A stretch of DNA of 64,000 nucleotides from a virus, in IMG/VR virus record IMGVR_UViG_3300030329_006606, positions 1-64,000 of that record. One strand, given 5' to 3'. Position 1 is the stretch's first letter. Each line of letters starts with the position of its first letter. The notes below the pieces were generated by a model that saw only the letters and a program-made list of their open reading frames with translations, was not told where the DNA came from and did not search any database. Shown one piece after another: positions 2,019 through 43,208 of this stretch. Made by a program: the position numbers and the translations under genes.

Positions 2019-2019
2019 T

Positions 2020-2628: not shown

Positions 2629-2866
2629 TGACCCACTCCGCTAATTCTTTTGCTTCTTCTTTACTTAAAATTAATTGATCATCATAATAATTACCCTTGG
2701 TCAGCGCCATCCAGCATAACTTTAGTCTCATCCACCAAGTTAATTTGACGGGGTGTAAGCCCTCTCGCCAAAAACTAACATAGATTTCTTCTTCGCCATC
2801 AAACTTGGTAAGTAGCATACCTTCGCCGTGACAACTGCATTTAATGAATTTTTCTTGGTCTGCCAT
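2615..2866 (-). CDS. Hypothetical protein with CxC motif
   Basis: 83-aa ORF directly downstream of a TTGACC-N16-TATCAT promoter. Confidence 0.7.
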   Translation of the reverse strand: MADQEKFIKCSCHGEGMLLTKFDGEEEIYVSFWREGLHPVKLTWWMRLKLCWMALTKGNYYDDQLILSKEEAKELAEWVNGNV

Positions 2867-2900
2867 CTCATAGCTAATGATACCCTGTTTTTTTGAAGGG

Positions 2901-5448: not shown

Positions 5449-5450
5449 GG

Positions 5451-6331: not shown

Positions 6332-6423
6332 TTAGCTCTATCCAATTTAATCTGTCTCTTGAGTGAAGAGTTCTCATTTTCAAGGCTTCTTATCCTAGAC
6401 TCAAGCTTTAAAATTTTCCACAT
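6274..6423 (-). CDS. Possible small coiled-coil protein
   Basis: MWKILKLESRIRSLENENSSLKRQ heptad pattern fills a gap, but overlaps next gene by 58 nt. Confidence 0.4.
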   Translation of the reverse strand: MWKILKLESRIRSLENENSSLKRQIKLDRAKWRSNTYLVQKRKKSSIIN

Positions 6424-6436
6424 TAGTATGTTTTTT

Positions 6437-7117: not shown

Positions 7118-7175
7118 AACTAAATAAAGTATAACATATTTTGTTTTTAAAGCAAGCTAAAACTTATAATTTATT

Positions 7176-7532
7176 ATGAGTAATTGGGTAGACTTAGCTC
7201 CTGAAATTTGTAGACAAAGAATGGTGATAGAAGGTACTCTGCATAACTCTTTTACACCGAAAGAGATGAAGCAGTACTGCCAAGAAATATCACAGGTTCT
7301 TGATATGACACCGGTATCAACTCCACATTTATCTTTTGAAGAAAAATACGGCTGGTGTTGTTTTATGCACTGGAAGGAATCTGGAATGCATATATATAGT
7401 TGGGAAAATCGTAAGCCACAGTTTTTCTCTATAGATATTTATACGTGTAAAAAGTTCGCGCCTGACCACGCCATGAACTATACGAATGAATTTTTCGGCG
7501 AAAATCTAATCAAGGTCGTCTGGAAAGAATGA
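7176..7532 (+). CDS. Pyruvoyl-dependent SpeD/AdoMetDC-like decarboxylase proenzyme
   Basis: KE|SGMHIYSW self-cleavage site and IDIYTC motif; substrate uncertain. Confidence 0.8.
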   Translation: MSNWVDLAPEICRQRMVIEGTLHNSFTPKEMKQYCQEISQVLDMTPVSTPHLSFEEKYGWCCFMHWKESGMHIYSWENRKPQFFSIDIYTCKKFAPDHAMNYTNEFFGENLIKVVWKE

Positions 7533-9082: not shown

Positions 9083-9169
9083 TGGTAGGGAAGGAGGGAC
9101 TCGAACCCTCATGAGCTAACGCTCGACAGATTTTAAGTCTGTTGTGTATACCAATTCCACCACTTCCCC
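9083..9169 (-). tRNA. tRNA-Leu(TAA)
   Basis: GGGGAAG/CTTCCCT acceptor, ACAGA-CT-TAA-AA-TCTGT anticodon arm, long variable arm, GTTCGAG, encoded CCA. Confidence 0.95.
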
Positions 9170-9171
9170 GA

Positions 9172-9247
9172 TGGTAGGCGATGCAGGGCTCGAACCTACG
9201 ACCTACTGGGTGTAAACCAGTTGCTCTTCCAACTGAGCTAATCGCCC
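9172..9247 (-). tRNA. tRNA-Val(TAC)
   Basis: GGGCGAT/ATCGCCT acceptor, ACTGG-TT-TAC-AC-CCAGT anticodon arm, encoded CCA. Confidence 0.95.
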
Positions 9248-9251
9248 AAAG

Positions 9252-9328
9252 TGGCAGGAAAGCTGGGACTCGAACCCAGAACCTACGGTTTAGAAGACCG
9301 TTGCTCTATCCAATTGAGCTACTTTCCC
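9252..9328 (-). tRNA. tRNA-Arg(TCT)
   Basis: GGGAAAG/CTTTCCT acceptor, ACGGT-CT-TCT-AA-ACCGT anticodon arm, encoded CCA. Confidence 0.95.
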
Positions 9329-28731: not shown

Positions 28732-29158
28732 GGGAGCGTACTGGATTCGATTTAGAACCTTACGCCAGATTGCAAGCAGAGGATAATGGTTGGCCTCTTA
28801 AAACATCCATTAAAAAATCCAAATGCCAATGATACCATTGACATGGAGATGGCCCCTTCGCTAGCCGAAGCTGACGCGATCCTCGCTAAGTTCGGTTATG
28901 TTGAAGAGGAAACTCTCCAACTAGCAGCTTAAGTTCTGCTACGTCCTACTCTGGATGCTCGTTAAAGAGATAGGGCGACGACAGCGAGCAAAACACTGGT
29001 TGAGTCTGGTTGAGTCTCCAGTAGTTTAAAAAAAGATAGACCAAACCTTACGTGAAGTCGTCGGCCACGGACACGTATTGAATTAGGCCGACTAAGCTTG
29101 TAGTACATTTGAGCCGATGGCTTTAAAGACGCGGGTTCGACTCCCGCCGCTTCCACCA
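28732..29158 (+). ncRNA. ssrA: tmRNA
   Basis: 5' GGGAGCG..GGATTCGA, 3' GCGGGTTCGACTCCCGC CGCTTCC-ACCA, G3:U70 pair, tag ORF 28825-28932 ending LAA-stop; TTGAAA-N17-TATAAT promoter upstream. Confidence 0.95.
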
Positions 29159-29167
29159 ATTTAAATT

Positions 29168-29689
29168 ATGGCTCATCCACAACAGGCAGAATTCTGCAAT
29201 AAGGTTAAGGCGCTTTTCCCAAACCACTTTACTGGTGTCAACGTCTTAGATTGCGGCTCCCAAGATATTAACGGCAACAACAGATATTTATTTGAAAATT
29301 CTCAATACCTCGGGATAGACTTAGGCGAAGGACGAAACGTAGACGTAGTTTGCCCTATGTCTAAGTTTAAATCTGATTCTGGATATCAGACGATTATTTC
29401 CACAGAAGCTTTTGAACACGACAAAGACTTCGACGCCAGTTTAAAAAATATTTTAAACCTCCTACTTCCCGGGGGCCTATTCCTAATGACTTGCGCTGGC
29501 CACGGTAGACAAGAACATGGCACTCATAGAACCACTGGGTCTGACTCACCATACACCTTAGATTTCTATCAAAACAGATACCCCGAAGACTTCAGTAAAG
29601 CTATTGACCTATACAAAGAATTTAAAAAATTCTCCTTTGAATACAACAGCGAAACCCGAGATTTATATTTTTGGGGATTAAAATACTAG
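29168..29689 (+). CDS. Class I SAM-dependent methyltransferase
   Basis: VLDCGSQDING, GID...G.NVD, EAFEHD, LLPGG. Confidence 0.85.
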   Translation: MAHPQQAEFCNKVKALFPNHFTGVNVLDCGSQDINGNNRYLFENSQYLGIDLGEGRNVDVVCPMSKFKSDSGYQTIISTEAFEHDKDFDASLKNILNLLLPGGLFLMTCAGHGRQEHGTHRTTGSDSPYTLDFYQNRYPEDFSKAIDLYKEFKKFSFEYNSETRDLYFWGLKY

Positions 29690-29695
29690 ATTTGC

Positions 29696-30112
29696 ATGAG
29701 ACTATTCAATATACACGGTCGCGCACAAAACAAGAATGTCGCAAAATACGCAATAGATTGGGATAAAAAATCTAAATCAAAATTGCAGAAAAGCGTTAAA
29801 GACTTCCTGAGACCCTACTGGAAAGCCCACGTGGTATTCGAGGAGTTCCCAGTGTATGGAACTAGATTGAGGGTAGATTTTTTAAATGCAACAAACAAGA
29901 TAGCCATAGAAGTTAACGGCCCACAACACAATGCTTTTCATAAGTTTTTCCACGGTAACTCTAGAGCCAAATACCTTGAATCAATCAAGAGAGATATGCA
30001 AAAAGCTCAATGGTTAACAGATAATAAATTCCACTTAGTGGAGTTAGAGGAAGAAGATATCTTAAATATGTCAAAGAAAACTTTTGAAGAGAAATTTAAG
30101 ATTTCCCTTTAA
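29696..30112 (+). CDS. DUF559/Vsr-like endonuclease
   Basis: LRVDF...IAIEVNGPQH...RD..K. Confidence 0.8.
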   Translation: MRLFNIHGRAQNKNVAKYAIDWDKKSKSKLQKSVKDFLRPYWKAHVVFEEFPVYGTRLRVDFLNATNKIAIEVNGPQHNAFHKFFHGNSRAKYLESIKRDMQKAQWLTDNKFHLVELEEEDILNMSKKTFEEKFKISL

Positions 30113-30154
30113 AGTCTTGACTGAGATAAAAATTCAGCTATACTTTAAAGTAAG

Positions 30155-31639
30155 ATGGACTCAATTTATTCTATACAAGTAGAGAAGCATGTCTTAGGAG
30201 GGCTAATTAAAATTCCAAAATCCTTCGCGGACGTGGAGAAATACATCACGGAAAAAGACTTTGTCAATGAAGTTCATCAAACCGTTTTTCGTGTTCTCCG
30301 AGAAGTTATTTTAGAGAGAGGAACAGTAGACACGGTTATTCTTGCTGAGAAAATAAAAAATATAGGAATATCATTCAAGGATGACATTAATATTTACGAC
30401 TACCTTGAGGCTATTTCTTTCAGCCAGATAACCTACAAAGCAATTATAGAAGCATCTCAAGAATTAAAGAAACTTACTGTACGTAGAGAGCTTTACCATA
30501 AGTGCGACGAAATTAAAAAATTTATCAAAGAGAACGGTGAAGAACAAATTGATGCAATCGTGAGCGAGGTGGACTCCCTGTATGGAGAACAACTCAGAAC
30601 CTATGAGATAGAAGATGAGCCAATCAATATATTCGAAACTATGAGAGACAATGTAGAAGAAAGAGGAAACAACCCACAAGACGACATGGGGATTCAAACC
30701 CCATACCCAGAATTTAACAGATTATATGGTGGCCTTCGCCCCGGCAACCTCTACGCTATAGTAGCTAGACCGGGGCAAGGCAAAACAACTTGGTTAAATG
30801 ACATCTGCTTTAAGACAGCAAAGATGAATAAAATACCCGTTCTCATCTTGGATACAGAGATGAGTTCAATGGATATTCAATCCAGAATAGCCTCGGCACT
30901 CACAGGGGTTCCGCCTTGGTACATAGAAACAGGAAACTGGCGCAAAAATCCAGAGCTTATAGATAAAGTGAGAGAAGGACTGAAAAGCGTTCGCAATGAG
31001 AACCTCCATCACTTTTTCGTTGGTAATAAAAATATAGATCAAATTTGTTCTCTGGTAAGGCGCTGGCACTTGACTCACGTGGGCCGCGGAAACCCATTCG
31101 TGCTTGGTTATGACTATGTTAAGCTTACCGGAGAGAAAGTTGGCAACAACTGGGGAGAACACCAAGCTATCGGTGACAAAATTGACAAGCTCAAGAAACT
31201 GTCAGAAGAGTTACAATGCCCCCTAATCACAGCAATGCAACTAAATAGGTCCGGCGAAAACTTTAACCGCCGCGCGCAAGGTGTGGTGGATGATAGCTCT
31301 GCCATATCTTTGTCAGATAGACTTCAGTGGTTTGCATCATTTGTTGCAATTTTTCGCCGAAAAGTTGTGGAAGAAATCGCTGAGGATGGAGAGCAATTCG
31401 GAACCCATAAGCTCATACCGCTTAAGACTAGGTTCCAAGGTAAAGACGCGGCCGGTCATCATGATATTGTCAGAAGGTTAGGTCAAGACGGAGAAGAACG
31501 TTGGGTGAATAATTATTTAAATTTTAATTGTGAAAACTTTAATGTTCGAGAAATGGGCTCCCTAAGGGATGTAGACGCTAGAGCAAGAGAGCAATATCTA
31601 GTAGAAGGAGAAAATCCACATGACGGAGACGTAATATAA
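30155..31639 (+). CDS. dnaB: Replicative DNA helicase
   Basis: E..VLG N-domain, ARPGQGKT, EMS, DY, QLNR, K.R motifs. Confidence 0.93.
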   Translation: MDSIYSIQVEKHVLGGLIKIPKSFADVEKYITEKDFVNEVHQTVFRVLREVILERGTVDTVILAEKIKNIGISFKDDINIYDYLEAISFSQITYKAIIEASQELKKLTVRRELYHKCDEIKKFIKENGEEQIDAIVSEVDSLYGEQLRTYEIEDEPINIFETMRDNVEERGNNPQDDMGIQTPYPEFNRLYGGLRPGNLYAIVARPGQGKTTWLNDICFKTAKMNKIPVLILDTEMSSMDIQSRIASALTGVPPWYIETGNWRKNPELIDKVREGLKSVRNENLHHFFVGNKNIDQICSLVRRWHLTHVGRGNPFVLGYDYVKLTGEKVGNNWGEHQAIGDKIDKLKKLSEELQCPLITAMQLNRSGENFNRRAQGVVDDSSAISLSDRLQWFASFVAIFRRKVVEEIAEDGEQFGTHKLIPLKTRFQGKDAAGHHDIVRRLGQDGEERWVNNYLNFNCENFNVREMGSLRDVDARAREQYLVEGENPHDGDVI

Positions 31640-31640
31640 A

Positions 31641-32552
31641 ATGGACTACAAAGAAATATTATTAGACATGGGGTATTCGAACATAATCGATAACGGTAGA
31701 GAGTTAAGAACTAAGCCGATCTACCGCGACTCAAGCAGCAATACGGTTCTAAGCATCAGGAAAGACACCGGCCACTTCATTGATTTCAGCAAGCAAATCA
31801 GTGGATCATTCTTAGAACTGGTTAAGATTTCCCAAGGGTTTAAGGATTACAAAGAAGCTCAAAACTATTTAGAAGATAAAGGCAGCGTCACAAGAAAAGT
31901 TATCCGTAAGCCTGAGGTGAAATCCCCAAAAGTTTTTCCCTCGGAATACTTATCAAAACTCCTACCAGATCATAGCTACTGGATTGACAGGGGTATAGAA
32001 AAATCAGTGTTAGAGGAATTCGGCGGCGGCCTTTGTAAGACGGGGAGTATGGAGGGCCGCTACGTATTCCCTATTTTAACCTCCAAGAATGAATTGATAG
32101 GAGTCTCCGGAAGAGACGTGGAAAACAGGGAATCTAAACCAAAGTGGAAACATAAAGGTACTAAAGCTTTCTGGAAATACCCATTACAAATTAATTATAA
32201 GATTCTTAAAGAAAAGAAAGAAATCATACTTATCGAGAGTATCGGTGACGGTCTATCCCTCTGGCAAGCTGGCGTTAAGAATTTTATAGTCACATTCGGT
32301 TTAGATTTAAATACTAATTTAGTTAATTTATTTTTAAAATTAGACCCCAAGAAAATATATATCTCATTCAATAATGATTCAAATAATAATAATGCAGGTA
32401 ATTTAGCAGCAGAAAAAGCAAAGAAAAAATTATGTAAATATTTTGATCATAATCAAATCTCTATTAAATTACCTACAAAGAAAGATTTTGGAGAAATGAG
32501 TATGAAGGAGATAAAAGAATGGCAAATTAATACTTGCCAATCTGTAAAATAA
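31641..32552 (+). CDS. dnaG: DnaG-like primase (TOPRIM)
   Basis: RYVFPI...IGVSGR, KW, LIESIGD, KDFGEM; follows dnaB. Confidence 0.85.
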   Translation: MDYKEILLDMGYSNIIDNGRELRTKPIYRDSSSNTVLSIRKDTGHFIDFSKQISGSFLELVKISQGFKDYKEAQNYLEDKGSVTRKVIRKPEVKSPKVFPSEYLSKLLPDHSYWIDRGIEKSVLEEFGGGLCKTGSMEGRYVFPILTSKNELIGVSGRDVENRESKPKWKHKGTKAFWKYPLQINYKILKEKKEIILIESIGDGLSLWQAGVKNFIVTFGLDLNTNLVNLFLKLDPKKIYISFNNDSNNNNAGNLAAEKAKKKLCKYFDHNQISIKLPTKKDFGEMSMKEIKEWQINTCQSVK

Positions 32553-32570
32553 TAATATAATATTACTAAC

Positions 32571-32735
32571 ATGGCACTCAAAATACAAAAACAAGAACGT
32601 AAAACTGTAGATAAAAAAACTAGACAGGGCTGTAGCAACAACAGCAAAGGTATGAAGAAGTACAGAGGGCAAGGCGGACCAAGAAAAAGATGCCGCCAGT
32701 CTTGTAAGCCCGGAAGACGGGGGGCTAAAAAATGA
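32571..32735 (+). CDS. 54-aa basic protein (not in ORF track)
   Basis: MALKIQ...KKTRQG...KKYRGQG...; promoter upstream; ATGA overlap with next gene. Confidence 0.75.
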   Translation: MALKIQKQERKTVDKKTRQGCSNNSKGMKKYRGQGGPRKRCRQSCKPGRRGAKK

Positions 32736-33286
32736 GGCTAGATCATGTAGCTTACAGAGTTGAGAATAGGTATAGATCCGCTGGATTTTTTACCGAAGCT
32801 TTTGGTTATAAGCTTGGCACAGAATTTCAAATCGAATTTGATGATGGGTCCAAGGCGGACTGTCTAGCTCTTACGCCACCTGAAATAAGGCACCCAGACA
32901 CAATGCTCTGGACTCATCACGCTTTACACCCCGCACCCTACGAGACGATCAACGCAGAATACCATGCCCCACCCGAGATTTTCGTTAGTGATGGCAGCAA
33001 GGGGTCCATCGTGGGCGACTGGGTGGCAGAAAGAGGCGGAGTAGGGGGTATCCATCACATGGCATACCAAGTTGAGGACGTAGCGGCAATCATGAAAGAA
33101 TGGAAAGAAAAAGGGTACGCGGAGTTCTACTCTGAAGAACCTATAACCTGCAAAGATCCGGACTTAACACAGGTCTTCACCAAACCATCAGAACTTACAG
33201 GAGTAATATATGAATTCATTAACAGAGAAGGCGCTGGATTTTGCAAAGACAGCGTTAAGGAACTTATGCAAAGCACTAAGGAATAA
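32732..33286 (+). CDS. VOC-fold protein resembling the catalytic domain of 4-hydroxyphenylpyruvate dioxygenase
   Basis: LDHVA, GGIHHMA, LTQVFTKP...YEFINR..GF: His/His/Glu triad. Confidence 0.8.
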   Translation: MRLDHVAYRVENRYRSAGFFTEAFGYKLGTEFQIEFDDGSKADCLALTPPEIRHPDTMLWTHHALHPAPYETINAEYHAPPEIFVSDGSKGSIVGDWVAERGGVGGIHHMAYQVEDVAAIMKEWKEKGYAEFYSEEPITCKDPDLTQVFTKPSELTGVIYEFINREGAGFCKDSVKELMQSTKE

Positions 33287-33287
33287 T

Positions 33288-34823
33288 ATGAGAGACTTTG
33301 AAGGCAGAAACTACATTAATGGCAAGTGGCAAGCTACTGATGAGATGTATACTAAAATCAACCCTGCCACTGGCAAAGCGCAAGGCGCTTTCCCCTTGAG
33401 TGGACCGATAGAAGTAGAGACAGCTATTGAATCCGCTCGCTCAACTTTTAAAAAATGGAGAAAAGTTAGTAGGTTTGTACGCTCAGACTACATGAACAAA
33501 GTTGCTCAGTTAATTGAGGAAAGGAAAGATTTACTAGCTACAGCGATATCCCTAGAAACAGGTAAAAACTACAACGAAAGCGTGGCTGAAGTCAACGAAG
33601 CACTACACATGGCCCAATTTGCTTTTGGATCAGGAAGATACCCCCACGGCGAAGCGGTATCATCAGAAATACAAGACAAAGATTCTTACATGCTAAGAAA
33701 ACCTAAAGGGGTGATAGCTATCATAACTCCGTTTAATTTTCCCCTCGCAATAGGTATGTTTTGGAATGCTGCTCCAGCGTTAGTAGAAGGAAACACTATA
33801 GTAATCAAACCAAGCGAGGATGCGCCAATGTCAACTCAACTAGCTGTTCAAATCTATGAGGACGCAGGTATCCCAGCCGGTGTTATTAATTTGGTTCACG
33901 GAAAAGGTCACACTGGTGATCTTTTAGCTCGTGGCGAAGTGGATCACATTTGTTTCACTGGTTCCGCTGACGTTGGTCAACACATTCGTAAAGTCGCAGC
34001 CGAGTCTTGGCATAAAACAACCTCTTGTGAACTGGGGAGCAAATCAGCCTGTATTGTCTTTGATGACGTAGAAATTCCTTTAGCTCTAGAAGCCTCAATC
34101 GCTAGTGCGTTTAAATTATCAGGACAAAGATGTGTTTCTTCTGGACGAATCCTAGTACAAAGAACTATCTGCGATGATTTTGCTCGGAGGTTCGCCGATA
34201 AAGCTAGCAAATTAAAGACAGGTAACCCTTTTAAAAAGATCGTAAAGTCAACAGGTATGCCAGAAGCTGTTGCGTGGGATGAACTAGTCCCCGACGAAGA
34301 GATTTATTACGGACCAATCATAAACGAGCAAGGCTACGCAAAAATAAGAGCTTACAATAAAATGGTCAATGATGATAGTCAAGCCGAAGTATTACTTTCC
34401 CCCACTTATACCGGAGAACACGGGGCCTATTACTCAACTCCTATGGTTTATAAAACGGAGTGGCGCGGCCACGATGCACAATACCTACGAAACGAAGTAT
34501 TTGGCCCTCACGTAGCCATAATCCCATTTGATACAATGGAAGACGCGATTCGCATTTATAACGATACCGAATATGGTCTCGCAGTCGGAATCCTAACTAA
34601 TGATTTCAGAAAAGCGCGCGTTATGAGGGACGAGTGTGAGGCTGGTATGATTTACTGGAACGGTGGATCTATAGCAGCCGAGTCACATCTTGCATTTGGT
34701 GGAGTTAAGAAATCAGGAAACGGATTCCCAAGCGCAGCCAGAACTTTTAGAGCCGTAACTCATGAAATTAGCTGGACAGTTAACCACGCAAATGAGCTAA
34801 CGTTTCCTCAAGGAATGAAATGA
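33288..34823 (+). CDS. NAD-dependent aldehyde dehydrogenase
   Basis: ITPFNFP, KPSE, FTGS, ELGSK, SGQRC, EVFGP, FGGVKKSG. Confidence 0.95.
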   Translation: MRDFEGRNYINGKWQATDEMYTKINPATGKAQGAFPLSGPIEVETAIESARSTFKKWRKVSRFVRSDYMNKVAQLIEERKDLLATAISLETGKNYNESVAEVNEALHMAQFAFGSGRYPHGEAVSSEIQDKDSYMLRKPKGVIAIITPFNFPLAIGMFWNAAPALVEGNTIVIKPSEDAPMSTQLAVQIYEDAGIPAGVINLVHGKGHTGDLLARGEVDHICFTGSADVGQHIRKVAAESWHKTTSCELGSKSACIVFDDVEIPLALEASIASAFKLSGQRCVSSGRILVQRTICDDFARRFADKASKLKTGNPFKKIVKSTGMPEAVAWDELVPDEEIYYGPIINEQGYAKIRAYNKMVNDDSQAEVLLSPTYTGEHGAYYSTPMVYKTEWRGHDAQYLRNEVFGPHVAIIPFDTMEDAIRIYNDTEYGLAVGILTNDFRKARVMRDECEAGMIYWNGGSIAAESHLAFGGVKKSGNGFPSAARTFRAVTHEISWTVNHANELTFPQGMK

Positions 34824-36019
34824 TGACAGAGCATATACAACCAGACGAAAGAAAGACTGCTGCTGTTCTTGGAGTAGGCAGAATGGGAACAGTAATTTCA
34901 TACGCGATGAAAGAGCTTGGTTTTTTTGTTGTCGGCGTAGACAACAACGAATCTGCTGCCGTAAACTTTCGAAAACGAATGTCAGCAAACGATGGCACAT
35001 TCTACAGAGTAACTGAATCTGGAACCCTAGATGAAAATGCCATTGCAGCAGGAGTACCCCCAAAAGATTTCAGATATGTTCTCTCTCACGAGAAGCCAGA
35101 TATTGTAATAAGCAGTTTACCCTACCACCAAACCGAAGAAGTCGCTGCGTGGTGTATAGAAAACTCTTTAAGATATTGCGATCTAGGAGGAAGAGTGGAT
35201 GTATCAGAAAGAATCAATAAACTTGCCAATGAAAAAGCTAAGGCTCCCGTAATGACAGATTTAGGGCTTGCCCCGGGTTGGGTCAATATCTTAGCAGAAC
35301 ATGCTTGTAAGGAGATTCACGGCACCCCTGATGAAGTCTTAATGATGGTCGGAGGAATCCCGGGGACACCGAACAATCCCCCGCTTAATTATGCGTGTAC
35401 TTGGTCAACAGACGGGCTGCTTAACGAATACGCAGATGACTGTGAAATACTCTCTGATGGAGAAATAAAAAAAGTAAAAGGCATGGACGGCTTAATTGAC
35501 GTAGAATTCAATAAACTAAAGTTTACAAACTCCTCCCGAAAAATAGAAGCATTCTATACGAGCGGCGGTGCGTCACACACCATTAAAGATATGAAAGAAA
35601 GGGGTGTAAAAAATTGCGCTTATAGAACCATGCGTTGGAAAGGTCATGGAGATATTATAAAACTTTTAATTAGACAATGTGATTTGAGCAGAAAATGCTT
35701 AGAAAAAATATTTGAAAAAGGTTGCCCACACACAGAGGGTGACCCAGACCTAGTCCTCATTAAAGTAAAAGTTACATGCGGTAAACTAGTATGGTCTGAT
35801 GAAATAATTATAGGATATGATTCAGAATTTTCAGCTATGCAAAAGTCCACAGCCTTCTCTATCTCTGCTGTAGCATCTCAAATGGCTGAAGGGATGTATG
35901 ATGGTAAGCTAGATCAACATAGAGATTATTGGACAGAATACCCAAAAGCGTTATCATATAAACATATAAATTACAAAGACTTCAGCGATAGATTAAACAA
36001 GCTAGGAATTCAATTATAA
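34820..36019 (+). CDS. Saccharopine dehydrogenase / lysine 6-dehydrogenase family
   Basis: LGVGRMG, SSLPY, YCDLGG, GLAPG, VGGIP, WS.DGL.NEY, EAFYTSGG, T.R..GH, AMQKSTAF. Confidence 0.88.
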   Translation: MMTEHIQPDERKTAAVLGVGRMGTVISYAMKELGFFVVGVDNNESAAVNFRKRMSANDGTFYRVTESGTLDENAIAAGVPPKDFRYVLSHEKPDIVISSLPYHQTEEVAAWCIENSLRYCDLGGRVDVSERINKLANEKAKAPVMTDLGLAPGWVNILAEHACKEIHGTPDEVLMMVGGIPGTPNNPPLNYACTWSTDGLLNEYADDCEILSDGEIKKVKGMDGLIDVEFNKLKFTNSSRKIEAFYTSGGASHTIKDMKERGVKNCAYRTMRWKGHGDIIKLLIRQCDLSRKCLEKIFEKGCPHTEGDPDLVLIKVKVTCGKLVWSDEIIIGYDSEFSAMQKSTAFSISAVASQMAEGMYDGKLDQHRDYWTEYPKALSYKHINYKDFSDRLNKLGIQL

Positions 36020-36288
36020 TGAACGACATCAAGTTAAACGCCGATATGATTAACTGGTTAGATAAAAATAAATCTGACTATCAAAACATTGCTATCGATA
36101 ACCAAACCTTCCCCTCTGATGCGGTCACAAGGATGAACCAAATAAGCAAATCCCCACACTCAATGGCCGAGCGGCGCCTCTTACTTAAGGCGTTCTGCGA
36201 ACAATTTAATATGCTCCCTTACAGCGAGGGAGTACCAGTAGCAATCAAGATGATTGACCAGTGGCAACATATTAAAAAATATAAATAA
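36019..36288 (+). CDS. Hypothetical protein
   Basis: 89-aa ORF coupled to upstream stop. Confidence 0.7.
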   Translation: MNDIKLNADMINWLDKNKSDYQNIAIDNQTFPSDAVTRMNQISKSPHSMAERRLLLKAFCEQFNMLPYSEGVPVAIKMIDQWQHIKKYK

Positions 36289-36289
36289 T

Positions 36290-37243
36290 ATGCCTGAAAA
36301 TAAAGTACTATCCGCTTCAAGGATTAAAACCTTAGAAGACTGCGCGTGGAAATACTGGTGCAATTACCACCTAAAAGTCCCACAGAAAGGTAATGACGGC
36401 GCAAGCAGAGGAACAGTTTGCCACAGAATCTTTGAGCTTCTGTTGCTTAAAAAAAATAAAAAATATTTCGACGTAATCATAGACCAAAAATCCACAACCG
36501 CAAGTCCGGCTGTGTGCAGGTTAACAAGAATGCTCCTAAAACAAGAAGGTCAAGACGCAGAGTTTTACAACGAAGAAAACTACCAATTATGTCTAGACAT
36601 GATATATGTCGGGCTTAATTTTGATTTCTTCGGAAAAGGCGGAGAACCAGATAAACCGGAAATAAAATTTGTTATAGAAAAAGAAAACCCAGAATACAAG
36701 GTAATGGGCTTCATGGATAAAGTTCTAAAGTTTGATGATAAAATAAAAATAGTAGACTATAAATCAAGCAAGCGCAAATTCTCCAAAGAAGATTTAAAAG
36801 CAAACATGCAAGCCATGGTTTATACTTTAGCAAGCAAAGAGCTATGGCCCAAGAACCTCACGACCCTAGTTGAGTTCGTATTTCTAAAGTTCCCAAAGCA
36901 ACCACTCCAACAGGTGGAAGTGTCAGACGACCAACTCAAAGGATTTGAGCATTACCTAGCCCATATGTACAAAGTTATCAACAACTTTACCGAGGAAATG
37001 GCGAAACAAAACTACGCAAAAGATAAGTACGCAACCAAGTTCTTTTGTCGGTCAGACAAATCGGGGTGGAAATGCCCCTACCTAGAGAAGTTTGATTATT
37101 ATATTCTTCTTAGTGAAGAAGGTAAAATTCTTAAGTCTGCCTTTAAAAAGAAAGACTTGACAGCCTCGGATGGTCAAAAAATAGAGAAAAAAACATACGA
37201 AGGATGCCCCGCTCACACCGCTGACGACCCTTTCGACATTTAG
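36290..37243 (+). CDS. PD-(D/E)XK exonuclease (RecB/AddB-like)
   Basis: LSASRI...C, GTVCH, GFMD...IVDYKS, Q...Y, C-terminal cysteines. Confidence 0.88.
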   Translation: MPENKVLSASRIKTLEDCAWKYWCNYHLKVPQKGNDGASRGTVCHRIFELLLLKKNKKYFDVIIDQKSTTASPAVCRLTRMLLKQEGQDAEFYNEENYQLCLDMIYVGLNFDFFGKGGEPDKPEIKFVIEKENPEYKVMGFMDKVLKFDDKIKIVDYKSSKRKFSKEDLKANMQAMVYTLASKELWPKNLTTLVEFVFLKFPKQPLQQVEVSDDQLKGFEHYLAHMYKVINNFTEEMAKQNYAKDKYATKFFCRSDKSGWKCPYLEKFDYYILLSEEGKILKSAFKKKDLTASDGQKIEKKTYEGCPAHTADDPFDI

Positions 37244-37280
37244 CTCTTGACATTTTTGAAAAATGTCGTACCATTATAGT

Positions 37281-38048
37281 ATGGATAAAGATAATGTGAT
37301 TCCAATCTTTAAATCTCACTACAGCCTAGGTAAATCCATCCTCACGCTAGAGCCTCCGACAGAAGATAAAACGTACCCTAGGTCTTGTTTGTCCATATGT
37401 AAAGACTACGGGATTTCCAAATTTATACTGGTAGATGATAACATGAGCGGGTTCCTTCAAGCTTATGAATCCTCAAAAGAACTAGGGGTTCAATTGATTT
37501 TTGGTGTGAGAATAACTGTATGCGCAGACATGGAAGAGAAGAATCAGGAGTCGTTAAAGACAAACAATAAAGTAGTAATCTTCGCAAAAAACTCAGAAGG
37601 ATACAAGAAATTAATTAAAATTTACACTCTTGCCGCAAGAAAGGGATTCTACTATGAACCGAGAATAGACAGTGCTAATCTAAAGAAACTATGGGATAAT
37701 AATTTAAAATTATGTATTCCCTTTTATGATTCTTTTATACATGCTAATTTAATCAAAAACAGTCTTTGTGTACCGGAATTTGATTTTACTGAATTAACTT
37801 TCTTTTCAGAAGAAAATGAACTACCTTTTAACTCAATAATCCAAAGTGGCATTGAGAAGTTCGTTGGGGCAAAAAAAGATATAATTAAAGTTAAAAGTAT
37901 ATACTACGAAAAGAAGGAGGACTTTAAAGCCTACCTTACATTTAAATGTATCAACAACAGAACCACACTTGACAAACCAAACTTAGACCACATGACCAGT
38001 AACGAGTTCTGTATTGAAAGCTGGAAGGAAGAAAATGGTACCGTTTAG
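37281..38048 (+). CDS. Stand-alone PHP domain of DNA polymerase III alpha
   Basis: KSHYSLGKS, DDNMSG, IFGV, FAKN.EGYK.L.K, GFYYEPRID match the DnaE N-terminus. Confidence 0.85.
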   Translation: MDKDNVIPIFKSHYSLGKSILTLEPPTEDKTYPRSCLSICKDYGISKFILVDDNMSGFLQAYESSKELGVQLIFGVRITVCADMEEKNQESLKTNNKVVIFAKNSEGYKKLIKIYTLAARKGFYYEPRIDSANLKKLWDNNLKLCIPFYDSFIHANLIKNSLCVPEFDFTELTFFSEENELPFNSIIQSGIEKFVGAKKDIIKVKSIYYEKKEDFKAYLTFKCINNRTTLDKPNLDHMTSNEFCIESWKEENGTV

Positions 38049-38397
38049 AGTTAAAAAGGTAGAGAAAACTTGGGGCCACGAACTGTGGCTTGCCAATAAC
38101 GAAACAGAAAATTACTGCGCCAAAATCCTCTTCATCAAAAAGAATAAGAGCACATCAATGCATTACCACGTCAAAAAGCATGAAACAATGCACGTCTTAA
38201 AAGGAACCTTAATGGTAGAAGGACTAGGAGACAGGCATAACTTCGGGCATAAATTTGCAATGATGGCTAAAGAAGGTGAATCTCTAGAAATAGAAAGGGG
38301 CCGAGCCCATAAACTGGTAGCCCACCACGAAGATTTAACTATCATAGAAGCGAGCACATTCCACAGAGATAAAGACAGCTATAGACTACATAAATAA
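38035..38397 (+). CDS. Cupin (sugar isomerase-like)
   Basis: KVEKTWGHE, SMHYHVKKHET, H, EAST..DSYR. Confidence 0.8.
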   Translation: MVPFRVKKVEKTWGHELWLANNETENYCAKILFIKKNKSTSMHYHVKKHETMHVLKGTLMVEGLGDRHNFGHKFAMMAKEGESLEIERGRAHKLVAHHEDLTIIEASTFHRDKDSYRLHK

Positions 38398-38398
38398 C

Positions 38399-39037
38399 AT
38401 GGACGACCATTTACTTAGATTCGACAAAGAAAAAGTTTACTGTTTCATAGATTTTGAAACGGAAAACCTGTGCCTTAATAATTCCCACAATCTACCTTGG
38501 CAAGTAGCAATGATAAAAGCGGTTGACGGTAAAAAGATAGACGAAAAAAATTTTTACGTCAAATGGCCCCGACAAGTTAATGTAAGTAAGGAAGCCGCTA
38601 GAATAACTAGATTCAACTTAAAGAAATACGAAGAAATCGCCGTACCACACGATCAGATTTTCCCCACCGTTGAAGACTGGTTGGACAATTCTGATTATGT
38701 TTTAGGGCATAATATTTTAGGGTTTGATTTATATCTTATAAAAGATTTCTATAAGGAAATGGGTAAGGATTACAAACATTTGGTCGAAAAAATGATTGAT
38801 ACTATGTGTGTAGCTCGTGGTATAAAATACGACGAACGAATCAAAGACGATGAAAATTTCTTAGCATGGCAATACAAAATGTTACACACCCACAGAAAGG
38901 GTGTAAAAACCAACCTAACAGCCCTAGGTAAAGAATTTGACATACAACACAATTACGAAAAGCTTCACAATGCTATTGTAGATTTAGAATTAAACCTTAA
39001 AGTTTGGAATAAATTAAAATGGATGATTGATGTATAG
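38399..39037 (+). CDS. DEDDh 3'-5' exonuclease (DnaQ-like)
   Basis: IDFETE, GHNILGFD, IDT, HNAIVD. Confidence 0.88.
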   Translation: MDDHLLRFDKEKVYCFIDFETENLCLNNSHNLPWQVAMIKAVDGKKIDEKNFYVKWPRQVNVSKEAARITRFNLKKYEEIAVPHDQIFPTVEDWLDNSDYVLGHNILGFDLYLIKDFYKEMGKDYKHLVEKMIDTMCVARGIKYDERIKDDENFLAWQYKMLHTHRKGVKTNLTALGKEFDIQHNYEKLHNAIVDLELNLKVWNKLKWMIDV

Positions 39038-39045: not shown

Positions 39046-40665
39046 ATGAATATTCTTGGTATAACCCACCCCATAAGCTTTAATAGTAGTGCTTGCATAA
39101 TCAGAAGCGACGAACTTATTGCTATAGGAGAAGAGGAAAGGTTTAACAGAGTTAAACACGCCCCTAGAATTTTCCCAGAACAATCTGTAAAATTCTGCCT
39201 GAAAAAAGCGAATTTATCACCCGAAGATATTCATATTGTTGCCGTAGGGTTTGGGGATAAAAATTTCTGCGGAGGACCCGGCAGCAAAGAAATGATCAAG
39301 AGAAACTGGGATAAATGTTTGTTTGGTTTGGCTAAGTTAGGGATAGACTCTTGTAAAACTCGTTTTTTCTCCCACCACTTATGTCATATGATGTCTACCT
39401 TTGCTGCGGGAGGACATAAAAACTGGTCAAATATAATGTCTATCGATGGAGCGGGAGATGATTGCTCTGGGTTCATGGCTAATTCCGAGGGGCTTTTTCG
39501 TGACCTAAAAAGTTCTGTTAACTGCTCTGCTAACACCAGATTTCCTAGCTATATAATCCCTTGTGGAGCCTCTTGGGGGCTGCTATGGGAGGATGTCACC
39601 GAGCTTCTTGGTTTTAAAAGACACTCAGGCGAAGGAAAGACAATGGGGCTCGCCTCTTACGGCCAAGAAGATATGAGGTTATTACCACCTCTATTCTCAG
39701 AGAACTACCCAAACACAGAAAGCTTTAGAAATTTTTTCAAAAGCAATGGGTGGATAAATACCCGCGTAGACCCTTTGTCTGATACAGGCAAAAACCTAGC
39801 GCACACCCTGCAACAATATTATAATGAAAAACTAATTTATTATGCCAGAAGGCTGTACGAGAACACGAACTGCAAAAAGTTTTCCCTAGCAGGAGGGTGT
39901 GCGTTAAATTGTACAGCTAATGGAGAACTAGCCAAGCAAGATTTTGTTAAAGAATTATATATCCAACCCTTAAGTCACGACGCTGGAACTTCCGTTGGCG
40001 CAGCGATCATAGCATACTGGGCCGAAAACAACAAGCTTCCTAAGGCAAGAATGCCTCACGCCTACTGGGGCGCAGAATACTCCCACGAAGAAATACTTAG
40101 CGAATTAAATAAACAAAATATTCCCTTTAAAGAACAAGACCCAGCCAAAGCTGCCGCGGAATTGCTCGCGGATAATAAAGTTGTATGCTTTTTTCAAGGT
40201 CGAGCCGAAGTCGGACCGAGAGCTTTAGGAAACAGGAGTATCCTAGCAAACCCAATCTTTAAAGATAACCTAGATAAAGTTAACAAGATCAAAGGAAGAG
40301 AAAGCTGGAGACCTCTTGCGCCCAGCATTTTAGAAGAAAGTTATTTTGACGTAGTTGATGCAAAATTTTTATCCCCTTTTATGCTTATGGCTGCGCCTGT
40401 AAAAGAATATTATATAGAAAAAATTCCAGCAGTAGTTCATGTAGACAACTCGTGCAGACCCCAATCTGTAAACAAAAACACAAATAAAATTTTTCACAAA
40501 ACAATTCTTGAATTTAAAAAAAGAACTGGTATACCTGTAGTATTGAATACAAGTTATAATTTAAGCCACGAACCCATAGTTAATTCACCAAGGGATGCCA
40601 TCAAGACCTTCTTAAGTTCTGATGCAGACGCCTTAGTTATTGGTGATTTTGTTGTAGAAAAATGA
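39046..40665 (+). CDS. O-carbamoyltransferase (NodU/CmcH/TobZ family)
   Basis: EEERFNRVKH, HHLCH, IDGAGD, EGKTMGLA.YG, GGCALN, E.GPRALGNRSILA, RESWRPLAP, HVD...RPQ, LNTSYN. Confidence 0.95.
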   Translation: MNILGITHPISFNSSACIIRSDELIAIGEEERFNRVKHAPRIFPEQSVKFCLKKANLSPEDIHIVAVGFGDKNFCGGPGSKEMIKRNWDKCLFGLAKLGIDSCKTRFFSHHLCHMMSTFAAGGHKNWSNIMSIDGAGDDCSGFMANSEGLFRDLKSSVNCSANTRFPSYIIPCGASWGLLWEDVTELLGFKRHSGEGKTMGLASYGQEDMRLLPPLFSENYPNTESFRNFFKSNGWINTRVDPLSDTGKNLAHTLQQYYNEKLIYYARRLYENTNCKKFSLAGGCALNCTANGELAKQDFVKELYIQPLSHDAGTSVGAAIIAYWAENNKLPKARMPHAYWGAEYSHEEILSELNKQNIPFKEQDPAKAAAELLADNKVVCFFQGRAEVGPRALGNRSILANPIFKDNLDKVNKIKGRESWRPLAPSILEESYFDVVDAKFLSPFMLMAAPVKEYYIEKIPAVVHVDNSCRPQSVNKNTNKIFHKTILEFKKRTGIPVVLNTSYNLSHEPIVNSPRDAIKTFLSSDADALVIGDFVVEK

Positions 40666-43208
40666 ATTTTATGAGCACATTTGAAAAGCTAGAACTCGAT
40701 CTTCATGGAGTAAGATTGCCGTCTTTCTCTATTGAAAATAAATACAAACGCAACCTCAAAGTTAGCGAAGACATCTCCAACGAAGAATTTTTAGACGCGC
40801 TTTGCCAAGCGGGACTTGATAAAGTAACAGCCAACTTAAACGCAAAGAACGCCAAAGCCTACGAAGCTAGACTTAAAAGAGAGCTCGACACCGTAAAGGA
40901 ACTAGGATTCGTCGATTATTTATTGCTAGTTTGGGACGTGATCAACTTTTGCAACGAAAGTAAAATTCCTACCGGCGTTGGTCGCGGAAGCGCCGCTGGC
41001 AGTTTGATTTTGTTTTTGATTGGGGTAACAAAAGTCGACCCTCTTAAATATAATTTATTCTTCGAAAGATTTATCTCTAAGATTAGAGCTAAGAAAAAAG
41101 TAGTAGATGATATAACTTATCTTGACGGATCATTAATGATGGATGTAGATTTAGACATATGCTACTACAACCGCCAAAAAGTTTTAGAATATTTAGAGAA
41201 TAAATTCGAAGGAAAGACTTCTAAAATCCTTACTCTTAACACTCTAAGCACTAAACTGCTCATAAAAGAATGTGGAAAAGTAATTTCTAATAAAAGCGAA
41301 CAAGAAATGAACAAAGTTTCTGCGCTGATACCCAAGGTCTTTGGGCAAATCAAAAGCCTAGAAGAAGCTTACGCAGAGAAAGAAGAGTTTAAAGGGTGGT
41401 GCGACCAGAACAAAGAAATATATGATATAGCCCTAAAACTCAGGGGCTTAAACAAGAATAAAGGAGTTCATCCGTCAGCGGTTTCACTATCCTTCGATAA
41501 AATGGAGGACTCCTGCCCCACAGAATTAACCTCCGATAAGAAGGGGTTCGTTTCCTCTTATGACATGAATTGGGTTTCTATTTTTAATGTTAAATTAGAT
41601 ATTCTTGGGCTTAGAGCCGTGTCGGTTGTCGATGATGTATGTAAAAACGTTGGCATAGAACTTTCTGATATTGACCTTACGGACCCAGCCATATATCAAA
41701 ACTTACAAGACTTACGTACGCCTCATGGCCTGTTCCAAATCGAAGCGGAAACCAATTATAGAGTCTGCCAAAAAGTTAAACCCAAAAACCTAGAAGAACT
41801 TTCCGCCGTTCTCGCGCTTGCTAGACCGGGAGCCTTGCAGTTTGTAGATCAGTACGCCGCTTACGTAAATGAAGATGAGTACGAACCGATCCACCCTTTC
41901 TTCGATGATATATTATCCTCTACGGGGGGCGTTGCTCTTTACCAAGAGCAGTTAATGCAAATGGCGAATAAGGTTGGGTTCACACTCGACGAAGCCGAAA
42001 TTCTCCGCAGAATCGTAGGTAAGAAAAAGATTTCCGAGGTTAAAAAATGGAAAGCTAAAATTAAAAATAAAATTAAAGAGAAAAAACTAGACCCTAATAT
42101 AGCGGATATTCTTTGGAGCATTTTAGAGGACTCTGCTAATTATTCTTTTAATAAATCTCACTCCATATCCTATGGCGCACTGTGTGCAATCACCACTCAC
42201 TTAAAATTTAAGTATCCCCAACAATTTTTCTTAAGCTTACTTCGAATGACTCGCCACGAGCCAGATCCAATTAGTGAGATATCCAAAATTCAAAAAGAAA
42301 TGGATTACTTCGGCACGAAATTGTTACCGCCACATATTGTGAAATCCAAAATGGACTTCGAGATTGAAGGCGAAGATATAAGATTTGGTTTGCTTTCTAT
42401 TAAAGGCATTAGCGATAAAAGTATAGAAAAACTTAGCGATTTCCGCAGCGAATACTCCAACAAATTCGAAGTATTCGAAGGAGCAAAAGAATGCGGACTA
42501 ACCATAGGAGCACTCTCAGCATTAATCCAAGCCGGTACCTTCCAAGGCTTCAAACAATCTCGCAGTAAGATTGTTTATGAAGCTCAACTTTGGAACGTGC
42601 TAACACAGAAGGAGAAAAAAATCGCCATGGAAGTGGCCTCAAAACATGAGTTTGATTTGGTTGAAGTAATTAAAGACTTAGCTTCAAAAAAGGACGAAAA
42701 AGGTAAACCGTTTATTAAAGAGTCGAGAATGCAAACGATCAAAAGAAAATCAGAACCTTATAAGAAAATATATTTTAAGAATAAAGTCTCTGAATCTTTT
42801 GCCAACTGGTATTATGAAAAGAACTTGCTTGGCTACACATACAACAAGGACTTGCGCGACATATTCTCAGACAAAAGAGAAGACTTAATGAGCCTCAGAG
42901 ATATTGAAGGACTACCCACGGACTCAAGGGTTGTTTTTATTGGTACGGTTAGCGAAAAGCCATTTTTTGGTTCATCAAAGAACGGGAATAATTATATGAA
43001 ATTATTCGTCGAGGACGAGACCGCAGCCCTGAAGACCATGATATTCAACAAGAAGCTAGAAACATGCAAAAGCATGAACGACGGTTTCCCAAAAGAAAAA
43101 AGCATCGTCATCGTCAAGGGTACAACCAAAGACGAAGTGCTGTTCGCAGACAGCATCTCCGTACAAAGCAATAAAATTTACACCAAGCTATCAGAACTAA
43201 AAGAGTAA
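40662..43208 (+). CDS. dnaE: DNA polymerase III alpha catalytic part (no PHP domain)
   Basis: GRGSAAGS, FERF, DVDLD, KLDILGL, RPG, YQEQ, YSFNKSH, C-terminal OB fold. Confidence 0.95.
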   Translation: MNFMSTFEKLELDLHGVRLPSFSIENKYKRNLKVSEDISNEEFLDALCQAGLDKVTANLNAKNAKAYEARLKRELDTVKELGFVDYLLLVWDVINFCNESKIPTGVGRGSAAGSLILFLIGVTKVDPLKYNLFFERFISKIRAKKKVVDDITYLDGSLMMDVDLDICYYNRQKVLEYLENKFEGKTSKILTLNTLSTKLLIKECGKVISNKSEQEMNKVSALIPKVFGQIKSLEEAYAEKEEFKGWCDQNKEIYDIALKLRGLNKNKGVHPSAVSLSFDKMEDSCPTELTSDKKGFVSSYDMNWVSIFNVKLDILGLRAVSVVDDVCKNVGIELSDIDLTDPAIYQNLQDLRTPHGLFQIEAETNYRVCQKVKPKNLEELSAVLALARPGALQFVDQYAAYVNEDEYEPIHPFFDDILSSTGGVALYQEQLMQMANKVGFTLDEAEILRRIVGKKKISEVKKWKAKIKNKIKEKKLDPNIADILWSILEDSANYSFNKSHSISYGALCAITTHLKFKYPQQFFLSLLRMTRHEPDPISEISKIQKEMDYFGTKLLPPHIVKSKMDFEIEGEDIRFGLLSIKGISDKSIEKLSDFRSEYSNKFEVFEGAKECGLTIGALSALIQAGTFQGFKQSRSKIVYEAQLWNVLTQKEKKIAMEVASKHEFDLVEVIKDLASKKDEKGKPFIKESRMQTIKRKSEPYKKIYFKNKVSESFANWYYEKNLLGYTYNKDLRDIFSDKREDLMSLRDIEGLPTDSRVVFIGTVSEKPFFGSSKNGNNYMKLFVEDETAALKTMIFNKKLETCKSMNDGFPKEKSIVIVKGTTKDEVLFADSISVQSNKIYTKLSELKE

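Follow-up and report, generated by a model that had tools for sequence, protein, structure and literature searches.

Why should a marine phage carry, in the midst of its replication genes, a compact set of genes whose products resemble enzymes of amino-acid catabolism? This question is raised by a stretch of 64,000 nucleotides (nt), hereafter the window, which covers positions 1 to 64,000 of IMG/VR virus record IMGVR_UViG_3300030329_006606; the whole record has 88,816 bp, is classed by its source as a provirus and is estimated to be 57% complete. The cassette is hosted by an uncultured marine phage, is set inside its DNA-replication genes and encodes a basic peptide of 54 amino acids (aa), a single-domain VOC protein, an aldehyde dehydrogenase (ALDH) and a protein of the saccharopine dehydrogenase family. 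We propose, with a probability of roughly 0.5, that it serves the phage as an auxiliary metabolic module for the oxidation of lysine from the epsilon end.

Every substrate of this route, as well as the order of its steps, is what we infer from folds, conserved residues, gene linkage and an analogous cellular operon. The 399-aa enzyme would convert lysine and NAD(P)+ to 2-aminoadipate 6-semialdehyde, in equilibrium with piperideine-6-carboxylate (P6C), and the phage ALDH would oxidise the semialdehyde to 2-aminoadipate. A host aminotransferase, encoded outside the cassette, would yield 2-oxoadipate, which the VOC protein would decarboxylate and hydroxylate to 2-hydroxyglutarate; a dehydrogenase, also from outside the cassette, would produce 2-oxoglutarate. 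A lysine-catabolic role had already been suggested by a sequence-only reading of the window, and it gains support from a dehydrogenase nearest to lysine dehydrogenase (LysDH), from a VOC protein resembling HmaS and HglS, and from a cellular operon in which a VOC gene stands with lysine-catabolic enzymes. As a more tentative extension, possible rather than probable, the VOC protein may be the first of a family, carried mostly by phages, of Fe(II) 2-oxoacid dioxygenases of minimal size with a single domain, which would perform the HglS reaction from outside the HglS family, with the basic peptide as a fourth component of the route.

The cassette and its immediate neighbours are arranged as follows (window coordinates):

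30155-31639, plus strand: DnaB-type helicase of the replication block
31641-32552, plus strand: primase (Toprim_2)
32534-32561, plus strand: promoter-like site of sigma-70 type, TTGCCA-N16-TATAAT, found by motif score and overlapping the 3' end of the primase gene
32571-32735, plus strand: basic peptide, 54 aa; an open reading frame (ORF) without family
32732-33286, plus strand: single-domain VOC protein, 184 aa (Glyoxalase_4, Glyoxalase)
33288-34823 (maximal ORF frame 33210-34823), plus strand: ALDH, 511 aa (Pfam Aldedh, E 1.7e-121)
34820-36019, plus strand: saccharopine-dehydrogenase-family protein, 399 aa (Sacchrp_dh_C, E 3.5e-21)
36019-36288, plus strand: ORF of 89 aa overlapping the dehydrogenase stop by 1 nt; no family
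36254-37243, plus strand: PD-(D/E)XK nuclease (PDDEXK_1, E 8.6e-20)

The peptide stop and the VOC start overlap by 4 nt, as do the ALDH stop and the dehydrogenase start, and the VOC stop ends at 33286, with the ATG of the ALDH gene one base later, at 33288. This ATG was adopted in place of the start of the 537-aa maximal ORF, and the relatives align from residues 1-5 of the resulting 511-aa protein. The sequence-only reading had described a tightly coupled four-gene operon between primase and nuclease. Both the location and the coupling proved right; the count did not, since the 89-aa ORF continues the chain and brings it to five coupled ORFs. This ORF has no relatives in related viral loci and no family match, and its membership of the cassette is doubtful.

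Members of the saccharopine dehydrogenase family oxidise a C-N bond, releasing an aldehyde and an amine. The 399-aa protein matches Sacchrp_dh_C (PF16653) with 76.9 bits (cut-off 31) and falls just under the cut-off of Sacchrp_dh_NADP (PF03435; 24.6 against 25.1); its Rossmann motif reads GVGRMG, and it has no NCBIfam match. Its structure was modelled from a 20-sequence alignment (pLDDT 86.6, pTM 0.88) and compared with 48,161 chains by VIA-align (hereafter VIA). The first chain is 3abi, an L-lysine dehydrogenase (Z 37.5, rmsd 2.3, 334 of 345 residues aligned, 23% identity), with a lead of 6 Z units over the next family, followed by 4ina (Z 31.6), the saccharopine dehydrogenase domain of human AASS (Z 29.1), saccharopine reductase (Z 28.3) and homospermidine synthase (HSS; Z 22.1, 11% identity), the lowest of the five related families. 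Foldseek returned the same order, from 3abi (2.4e-24) through saccharopine dehydrogenase (1e-19) and carboxyspermidine dehydrogenase (CASDH; 1e-16) to HSS (1e-9). When the family profile was run against the PDB, 3abi was matched over its full length (3.2e-29) and only saccharopine reductases appeared besides, with no CASDH or HSS chain at E <= 1.

These reference structures have been discussed in a study describing 3ABI as L-lysine 6-dehydrogenase, arguing that 4ina is a CASDH and placing His228-Glu229-Glu230 of BfCASDH at the centre of CASDH catalysis (PMC10413350). No His-Glu-Glu tripeptide was found anywhere in the 399 residues of the phage enzyme, which is also shorter than HSS (about 470 aa). 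Because 3abi comes first by both structure and profile and this tripeptide is missing, the enzyme is grouped with those dehydrogenases that form aminoadipate semialdehyde, whether from lysine or from saccharopine, in agreement with the call made from the sequence alone, and lysine would be its probable substrate.

The ALDH belongs to superfamily PF00171 (406.5 bits). Asn150, Glu248 and Cys282, which we take from the superfamily to be the catalytic residues, are invariant in the alignment. The protein reaches no NCBIfam equivalog (best 308 bits against a cut-off of 770) and falls in a PHROG without an assigned function; by its sequence it appears to be a complete, NAD(P)-dependent enzyme of an uncurated subfamily. 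The segment G-Q-R281-C282 is invariant in an alignment of four phage ALDHs and three P6C dehydrogenases. In ALDH7A1, Arg301, beside the catalytic Cys, forms an ion pair with the product aminoadipate (PMC11362210), and ALDH4A1 has a Lys at the position before the catalytic Cys (PMC13162559). By analogy, Arg281 would fit an aldehyde bearing a carboxylate, and several such aldehydes would be compatible with it. Glu104 was also considered as an equivalent of ALDH7A1 Glu121; this came from offset counting only, the human sequence not being aligned, and the claim was dropped.

The VOC protein resembles known families only weakly by its sequence. It exceeds the Pfam gathering cut-offs of Glyoxalase_4 (PF13669; 28.5 bits, cut-off 27) and Glyoxalase (PF00903; 27.4 bits, cut-off 20.6), and the HGLS/DUF1338 family PF07063 is absent from its Pfam matches at E <= 0.01. 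A profile search of 1.84 billion cluster representatives recovered only 511 relatives at E <= 0.001, and these therefore form a small, sharply bounded family rather than a fringe of the epimerases or of HPPD. From the sequence alone, the protein had been said to keep the His/His/Glu triad and the tail of HPPD and to lack the N-terminal domain of that enzyme, and all three statements hold. Indeed, residues 145-181 align with positions 304-342 of the 353-position HPPD profile (TIGR01263, E 3.6e-5), the overall score of 23.4 bits is far below the family cut-off of 277, and the 184 residues align only to the C-terminal domain of HmaS.

This last alignment comes from a model built from 13 sequences (pLDDT 76.8), for which VIA placed first, among 48,161 chains, the catalytic C-terminal domain of HmaS (2r5v; Z 16.6, rmsd 2.7, 154 residues aligned), with model residues 1-184 lying on residues 157-344. 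It was followed by BH1468 and the methylmalonyl-CoA epimerases (Z 12.7-12.8) and by rice HglS/FLO7 with 2-oxoadipate (6w1k; Z 12.1, 155 aligned, 24% identity, chain residues 56-309); extradiol dioxygenases came well below all of these (Z 8-9.4). Foldseek ranked a methylmalonyl-CoA epimerase first (1.7e-9, against 6.3e-8 for HmaS), and its top 12 rows are epimerases. Since the two programs disagree on the first rank, the comparison with HPPD, HglS and epimerases foreseen by the sequence-only reading favours the HmaS domain by VIA and the epimerases by Foldseek, and fold ranking alone is not decisive. A BFVD search with the model gave no match at E <= 0.001.

The pattern of conserved residues, counted among the 150 best cluster representatives, is more telling of a possible active site. 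His5 (102/104), Arg9 (102/104), His108 (98/106), His109 (100/107), Gln147 (97/103), Glu161 (97/100) and Arg165 (88/95) are near-invariant. His78 (69/93) and Glu82 (84/109), which would be needed for a four-ligand site of epimerase or glyoxalase type, are looser. His5, His108 or His109, and Glu161 are thus candidate metal ligands, and Arg9, four residues after the first His, is a candidate binder of a distal carboxylate. HglS binds its metal through His70, His226 and Glu294, while its Arg74 makes a salt bridge to the distal carboxylate of 2-oxoadipate and the R74A variant is inactive; Arg64 of FLO7 is the equivalent residue, and the triad together with this Arg was described as a mark of 2-oxoadipate enzymes across DUF1338 (PMC7286885). 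The H-x3-R spacing of His5 and Arg9 is that of His70 and Arg74. Similarly, the Escherichia coli DUF1338 protein YdcJ reads H68-G-A-I-R72-V where the phage protein reads H5-V-A-Y-R9-V, its H68, R72, H224 and E292 corresponding to HglS numbering minus two. If the first strand is ungapped, His5 would fall on residue 60 of FLO7 and Arg9 on Arg64. An E-x-x-x-R motif on the third metal strand was also compared between YdcJ and the VOC protein; the spacing disagrees after conversion to HglS numbering, and the motif was not used. We propose, from the model and these residues, that the protein is an isolated catalytic domain of HPPD/HmaS type and a putative Fe(II) 2-oxoacid dioxygenase.

The same data bear on two other views of the VOC protein. 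Its top sequence matches are epimerases, both by profile (TIGR03081, methylmalonyl-CoA epimerase, 39.7 bits, E 6.3e-10) and among PDB sequences (the epimerase 1jc4 at 1.3e-7, HPPD at 0.011), which together with the Foldseek ranking and with the conservation, in the close family, of Glu82 and His78 near the fourth-ligand position would suit an isomerase akin to methylmalonyl-CoA epimerase or glyoxalase, acting on an acyl-CoA or on a reactive aldehyde adduct near the ALDH step. We nevertheless consider such a role improbable: the 39.7 bits are far under the cut-off of 114.95, the HmaS catalytic domain leads the epimerases by 4 Z units in VIA, the C-terminal helix and the Q-x-F-T...E-x-I-x-R..GF tail are not present in the epimerases of roughly 140 aa, among the candidate residues His78 and Glu82 show the weakest conservation once the wider family is considered, and the alignments show Ala in methylmalonyl-CoA epimerases at the position of Arg9. 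The hits to extradiol dioxygenases recall aromatic ring cleavage, in which a one-domain enzyme would open a catechol and the ALDH would oxidise muconic semialdehyde, and the ALDH does score 286 bits on the HpaE model and 279 bits on that of 2-hydroxymuconic semialdehyde dehydrogenase. These scores are far under their cut-offs and no better than those of many other ALDH models, HmaS, the epimerases and HglS all outrank the extradiol enzymes by a wide margin, and such a pathway fits poorly with a partner resembling lysine dehydrogenase and with the cellular operon described below; we judge it very improbable.

As a separate observation, a PF07063 (HGLS) cluster of 226-aa proteins (100% of members), recorded as Nucleocytoviricota, is a language-model neighbour of the VOC protein (score 0.91, 167 shared features), and giant viruses may encode short enzymes of HglS type.

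The dioxygenase reading of the VOC protein takes on a metabolic context from its neighbours in other viruses. Among protein clusters at 90% identity, VOC relatives number 1,613 at E <= 0.001 and dehydrogenase relatives 662. The former are almost all unnamed marine metagenome sequences (10 of 10 sampled VOC cluster representatives had no protein name), and the protein-atlas clusters containing them are 89-100% viral. A scan of IMG/VR provided 35 viral loci, of which 31 are evaluable and four end at or just after the VOC gene; near-duplicates are present among them (L004/L005/L006, L014/L015, L024/L025 and L033/L034). The ALDH gene lies directly downstream of the VOC gene in 24 of the 31 evaluable loci, the outcome of the check on neighbourhood conservation that the sequence-only reading had suggested, and 2-3.5 kb upstream in two more. 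Seventeen of the loci contain the dehydrogenase gene as well, on the same strand. Gene order varies, with VOC-ALDH-dehydrogenase in L018 and L023 and AdoMetDC-like gene-dehydrogenase-VOC-ALDH in L019, and up to 3 kb of other genes separate ALDH and dehydrogenase in relatives. The primase context is common to only one sub-group of the loci. Linkage kept through such rearrangement argues for a shared function, and the cassette is not rare among marine phages, in which it is a conserved, mobile unit.

Several further features of these loci were recorded. The genes between ALDH and dehydrogenase in relatives were labelled by eye as ClpP-like, HAD-like and GlpX-like. Similarly, HAD-like and AdoMetDC-like domains, recognised by eye, are fused in a 238-aa ORF directly upstream of the dehydrogenase (L030:8814-9530), and the HAD-like gene is separate in L017, L020 and L021. 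A membrane protein resembling MotA/ExbB (PF01618, 3.4e-6) is always paired with a 202-aa protein without family (window 4840-5987, minus strand; L004:8227-9347; L007:8449-9523; L011:4716-5995). This pair stands inside or beside the VOC/ALDH/dehydrogenase cluster in nine related loci, including L004, L005, L007, L008, L010, L011, L012 and L038, and in the present genome it lies 27 kb from the cassette. In a collection of phage GenBank genomes, the VOC gene occurs in two of 50,697 records, LR756511.1 (L001) and LR756504.1 (L002), both unannotated huge phages with neither ALDH nor dehydrogenase within 8 kb of it. These two and the huge phages L031 (381 kb) and L036 (373 kb) carry the VOC gene alone, at 53-64% identity and with none of the other two genes within 6-8 kb; the VOC enzyme can therefore work without them.

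The cellular relatives provide the most specific link to lysine. When one genome per species was scanned, 102 stretches encoding VOC relatives came up, of which 80 were kept and 39 loci examined. About 38 of the relatives are full-length (48-61% identity), mostly in metagenome-assembled genomes (MAGs) of Bacteroidota and Planctomycetota and in two cultured Prolixibacter species. In two Bacteroidota MAGs (L049 and L050), no more than 3 nt separate a VOC orthologue (56-57% identity) from an ALDH gene downstream. The ALDH matches human ALDH7A1 at 7.5e-168 and, in L049, scores 766.9 bits against NF050084 (L-piperidine-6-carboxylate dehydrogenase), above the cut-off of 730. The third gene of this operon encodes a 445-aa saccharopine dehydrogenase (2.8e-67 against the saccharopine dehydrogenase domain of human AASS), of the glutamate-forming type. 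Judged by these matches, the assignment of the cellular operon to lysine is firm. Its two dehydrogenases are not orthologues of the phage pair (28% identity between the ALDHs, no tblastn match for the other enzyme), and the association of VOC, ALDH and dehydrogenase therefore arose with different members of the same two superfamilies.

Weaker hints point the same way. None of five VOC-bearing genomes has an HGLS/DUF1338 gene, in a search whose control found HGLS in one of 14 well-known genomes; P6C dehydrogenase exceeds its cut-off in four of the five; and in L077 the VOC gene starts 6 nt after the end of a sodium:dicarboxylate symporter gene. Some copies classed as cellular may lie in prophages, and L078, which carries the phage-type cassette, is probably a phage contig in a bin. 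VOC was present in only one of 301 sampled genomes of one Bacteroidota order, that one being the genome used as centre. On a WOR-3 chromosome (L064:8500-9207), an ORF of 1,559 aa precedes the VOC gene, and the gene downstream, which overlaps with VOC, encodes a domain of the S-adenosylmethionine lyase family (4.7e-13).

Two other readings draw on a second metabolic cluster of the same genome, at 432-7532 of the window, no gene of which exceeds an NCBIfam cut-off:

432-1292: Pro_dh, E 2.8e-29
2901-3842: ornithine cyclodeaminase/mu-crystallin family (OCD_Mu_crystall), E 4e-60
3839-4843: D-2-hydroxyacid dehydrogenase, best NCBIfam match phosphoglycerate dehydrogenase (224 bits against a cut-off of 454)
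6437-7117: 2OG-Fe_Oxy_2 protein
7176-7532: AdoMetDC-like gene (Pfam AdoMet_dc, E 1.1e-10)

Located 25-32 kb from the cassette, this cluster could extend a lysine/pipecolate or an ornithine/proline route, which is a lead and not a finding.

The AdoMetDC-like gene is of interest because a homologue adjoins the dehydrogenase gene upstream in four of 17 related loci (L011, L017, L019 and L030). Phage AdoMetDC homologues were reported to be arginine or ornithine decarboxylases, and in cells such homologues cluster with HSS (PMC9992855, PMC10407285). The dehydrogenase could accordingly serve polyamine or diamine turnover, oxidising the terminal amine of putrescine, cadaverine, agmatine or a related amine supplied by the pyruvoyl decarboxylase, while the ALDH would turn the amino-aldehyde into an omega-amino acid such as 4-aminobutyrate and the VOC protein would have a separate role; aminobutyraldehyde dehydrogenase is indeed the second-best NCBIfam match of the ALDH (300 bits against a cut-off of 615). 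We regard this as unlikely, as the dehydrogenase is nearer to LysDH and the saccharopine reductases than to CASDH or HSS by structure and by profile and has no His-Glu-Glu tripeptide, Arg281 suggests an aldehyde bearing a carboxylate, the cellular operon follows a lysine route, and the adjacency of the VOC gene is left without explanation.

The Pro_dh and OCD_Mu_crystall genes would instead suit a C5 version of the pathway, in which an ornithine 5-dehydrogenase and an ALDH acting on glutamate semialdehyde/pyrroline-5-carboxylate would yield glutamate. The ALDH scores 276 bits on the model of L-glutamate gamma-semialdehyde dehydrogenase, and ALDH4A1 also has a basic residue before its catalytic Cys (PMC13162559). 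The nearest solved structure is a lysine and not an ornithine dehydrogenase, the cellular analogue couples VOC with C6 enzymes, and the proline dehydrogenase and OCD-family genes are 25-32 kb away, with none found in the related loci; we therefore give the C5 version little probability. We also know of no ornithine 5-dehydrogenase in the saccharopine dehydrogenase family, which counts against it.

The lysine route itself has to be weighed against a series of findings that speak against it. The ALDH obtains only 253.2 bits on NF050084, far from the cut-off of 730, and the models of alpha-ketoglutaric semialdehyde, aminobutyraldehyde and succinate-semialdehyde dehydrogenases score slightly above it. 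Epimerases lead both the sequence matches of the VOC protein and its Foldseek ranking, and an hhalign comparison of the VOC family alignment with YdcJ gave a probability of 3.5% and nothing usable, so that the likeness to HglS is one of structure and of a short motif; Arg9 was moreover matched to Arg64 of FLO7 from the end-points of the VIA alignment (model residue 1 on FLO7 residue 56), not residue by residue. Five viral loci and the two huge-phage records carry the VOC gene with neither ALDH nor dehydrogenase in the locus, the AdoMetDC-like neighbour recurs as described above, and no aminotransferase was seen in the cassette or in the related loci, which were read by eye. The analogous operon occurs in two of 39 cellular loci, which share synteny and count as one evolutionary instance. 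The other cellular contexts are heterogeneous, without a common theme, the neighbours including RecA, an enolase-superfamily gene of MR/MLE type (three loci), a solute-binding protein, phosphomannomutase, an IMPDH-family gene, a deaminase, an S-adenosylmethionine-lyase-like gene and a Y-family polymerase.

The small peptide encoded at the head of the cassette belongs to the module, and its pattern of substitution indicates a real gene. It is very basic, with a conserved core, KKTRQGC..S.G.K..RGQGGPRKR, kept in an alignment of six distinct homologues; homologues of 43-50 aa were found in seven related viral loci, where the gene stands just upstream of that for the dehydrogenase, with one intervening ORF in L021. 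The 26 codons of the core show 299 nucleotide differences, 232 of them at third positions, and the codon pairs that differ are synonymous in 194 cases and non-synonymous in 51. The peptide has no match in Pfam, NCBIfam or PHROG families, and a predicted complex with the dehydrogenase scored 0.00 against a mark of 0.32, a value uninformative on binding either way.

Some evidence is also available on expression. The site TTGCCA-N16-TATAAT agrees with consensus at 11 of 12 positions and is the best of 36 promoter-like sites in 29000-38500; shuffled versions of this region contain 21 such sites on average, and a single site is therefore weak evidence alone. Its -10 box ends 9 nt before the ATG of the peptide, so that a transcript starting from it would be nearly leaderless. 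Among 24 public runs listed, 20 contain at least part of the stretch, two of them recorded as RNA. One RNA library (X6) yielded a 3,035-nt contig identical to 32146-35180 (word depth 49.9), while a DNA-type run of the same sample (X7) has a depth of 0.7-6 in the same bins despite its roughly sevenfold larger size. RNA libraries can contain DNA, and contigs show neither transcript ends nor levels, nor can their depth rank genes; the X6 contig is thus a hint of cassette transcription. Of the single promoter claimed from the sequence, the near-consensus site at 32534-32561 stands; that it is the only one is not established, because the contig starts upstream of it, at 32146.

Beyond the cassette, the replication block includes a separate PHP-domain gene, a cupin, an exonuclease, a carbamoyltransferase-like gene and the core of DNA polymerase III alpha. 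The polymerase is split, with the PHP-domain gene at 37263-38048, the core (DNA_pol3_alpha, finger, HHH_6) at 40662-43208, and the cupin, exonuclease and carbamoyltransferase-like genes between them. Just upstream of the block, ARAGORN identified a phage tmRNA at 28732-29158 (plus strand) with the tag peptide EADAILAKFGYVEEETLQLAA, and a depth peak covers 29005-29605 in all four sequencing runs compared. Genes for tRNA-Leu (taa), tRNA-Val (tac) and tRNA-Arg (tct) lie at 9083-9328.

Compared with known systems, the VOC protein shares with HglS/FLO7 (PF07063) a VOC-type barrel, a His-His-Glu pattern of candidate ligands, an Arg four residues after the first His and, as proposed, a place after 2-aminoadipate in lysine catabolism, and with YdcJ the strand motif H-x-A-x-R-V. 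It differs from the HglS family in its 184 aa (against roughly 300-460 aa), in its HPPD-like C-terminal tail and in having no detectable sequence membership. With HPPD and HmaS (TIGR01263) it has in common the fold of the catalytic C-terminal domain, the tail motif and a candidate 2-His-1-Glu site, whereas the whole N-terminal domain is absent, the gene context is of lysine and not of tyrosine, and Arg9 suggests an acidic, non-aromatic substrate. The dehydrogenase resembles the L-lysine 6-dehydrogenase of Pyrococcus horikoshii (3ABI) in size class and in fold over its whole length, but is only 23% identical to it and reaches no curated family. The logic of the cassette, from amine to aldehyde to acid in two steps, is that of the saccharopine pathway (saccharopine dehydrogenase with ALDH7/P6C dehydrogenase), except that an enzyme of LysDH type would need no 2-oxoglutarate or saccharopine and that the phage ALDH is of another subfamily.

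Phage auxiliary metabolic genes (AMGs) are known for photosynthesis, nucleotides, sulfur, phosphate and polyamines. A full-text literature search brought up no paper describing this cassette or a lysine-catabolic route in phages. Large phages were reported to have more genes mapped to "lysine degradation" (PMC10732071), and the passages on this enzyme in a survey of viral polyamine enzymes name lysine 6-dehydrogenase only as a relative of HSS (PMC9992855). The chemistry and the logic of the pathway are thus already known; the novelty lies in the single-domain enzyme family and in a previously undescribed kind of phage auxiliary metabolism.

If the proposal is true, the VOC protein would be the smallest known member of the HPPD/HmaS/HglS class, handy as a scaffold for enzymology, and a second, independent solution to the 2-oxoadipate step. 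Abundant marine phages would own a route from lysine towards 2-oxoglutarate that also provides reducing power during infection, and phage infection would rewire how amino-acid carbon and nitrogen flow in the surface ocean, an effect unrecorded in current AMG catalogues.

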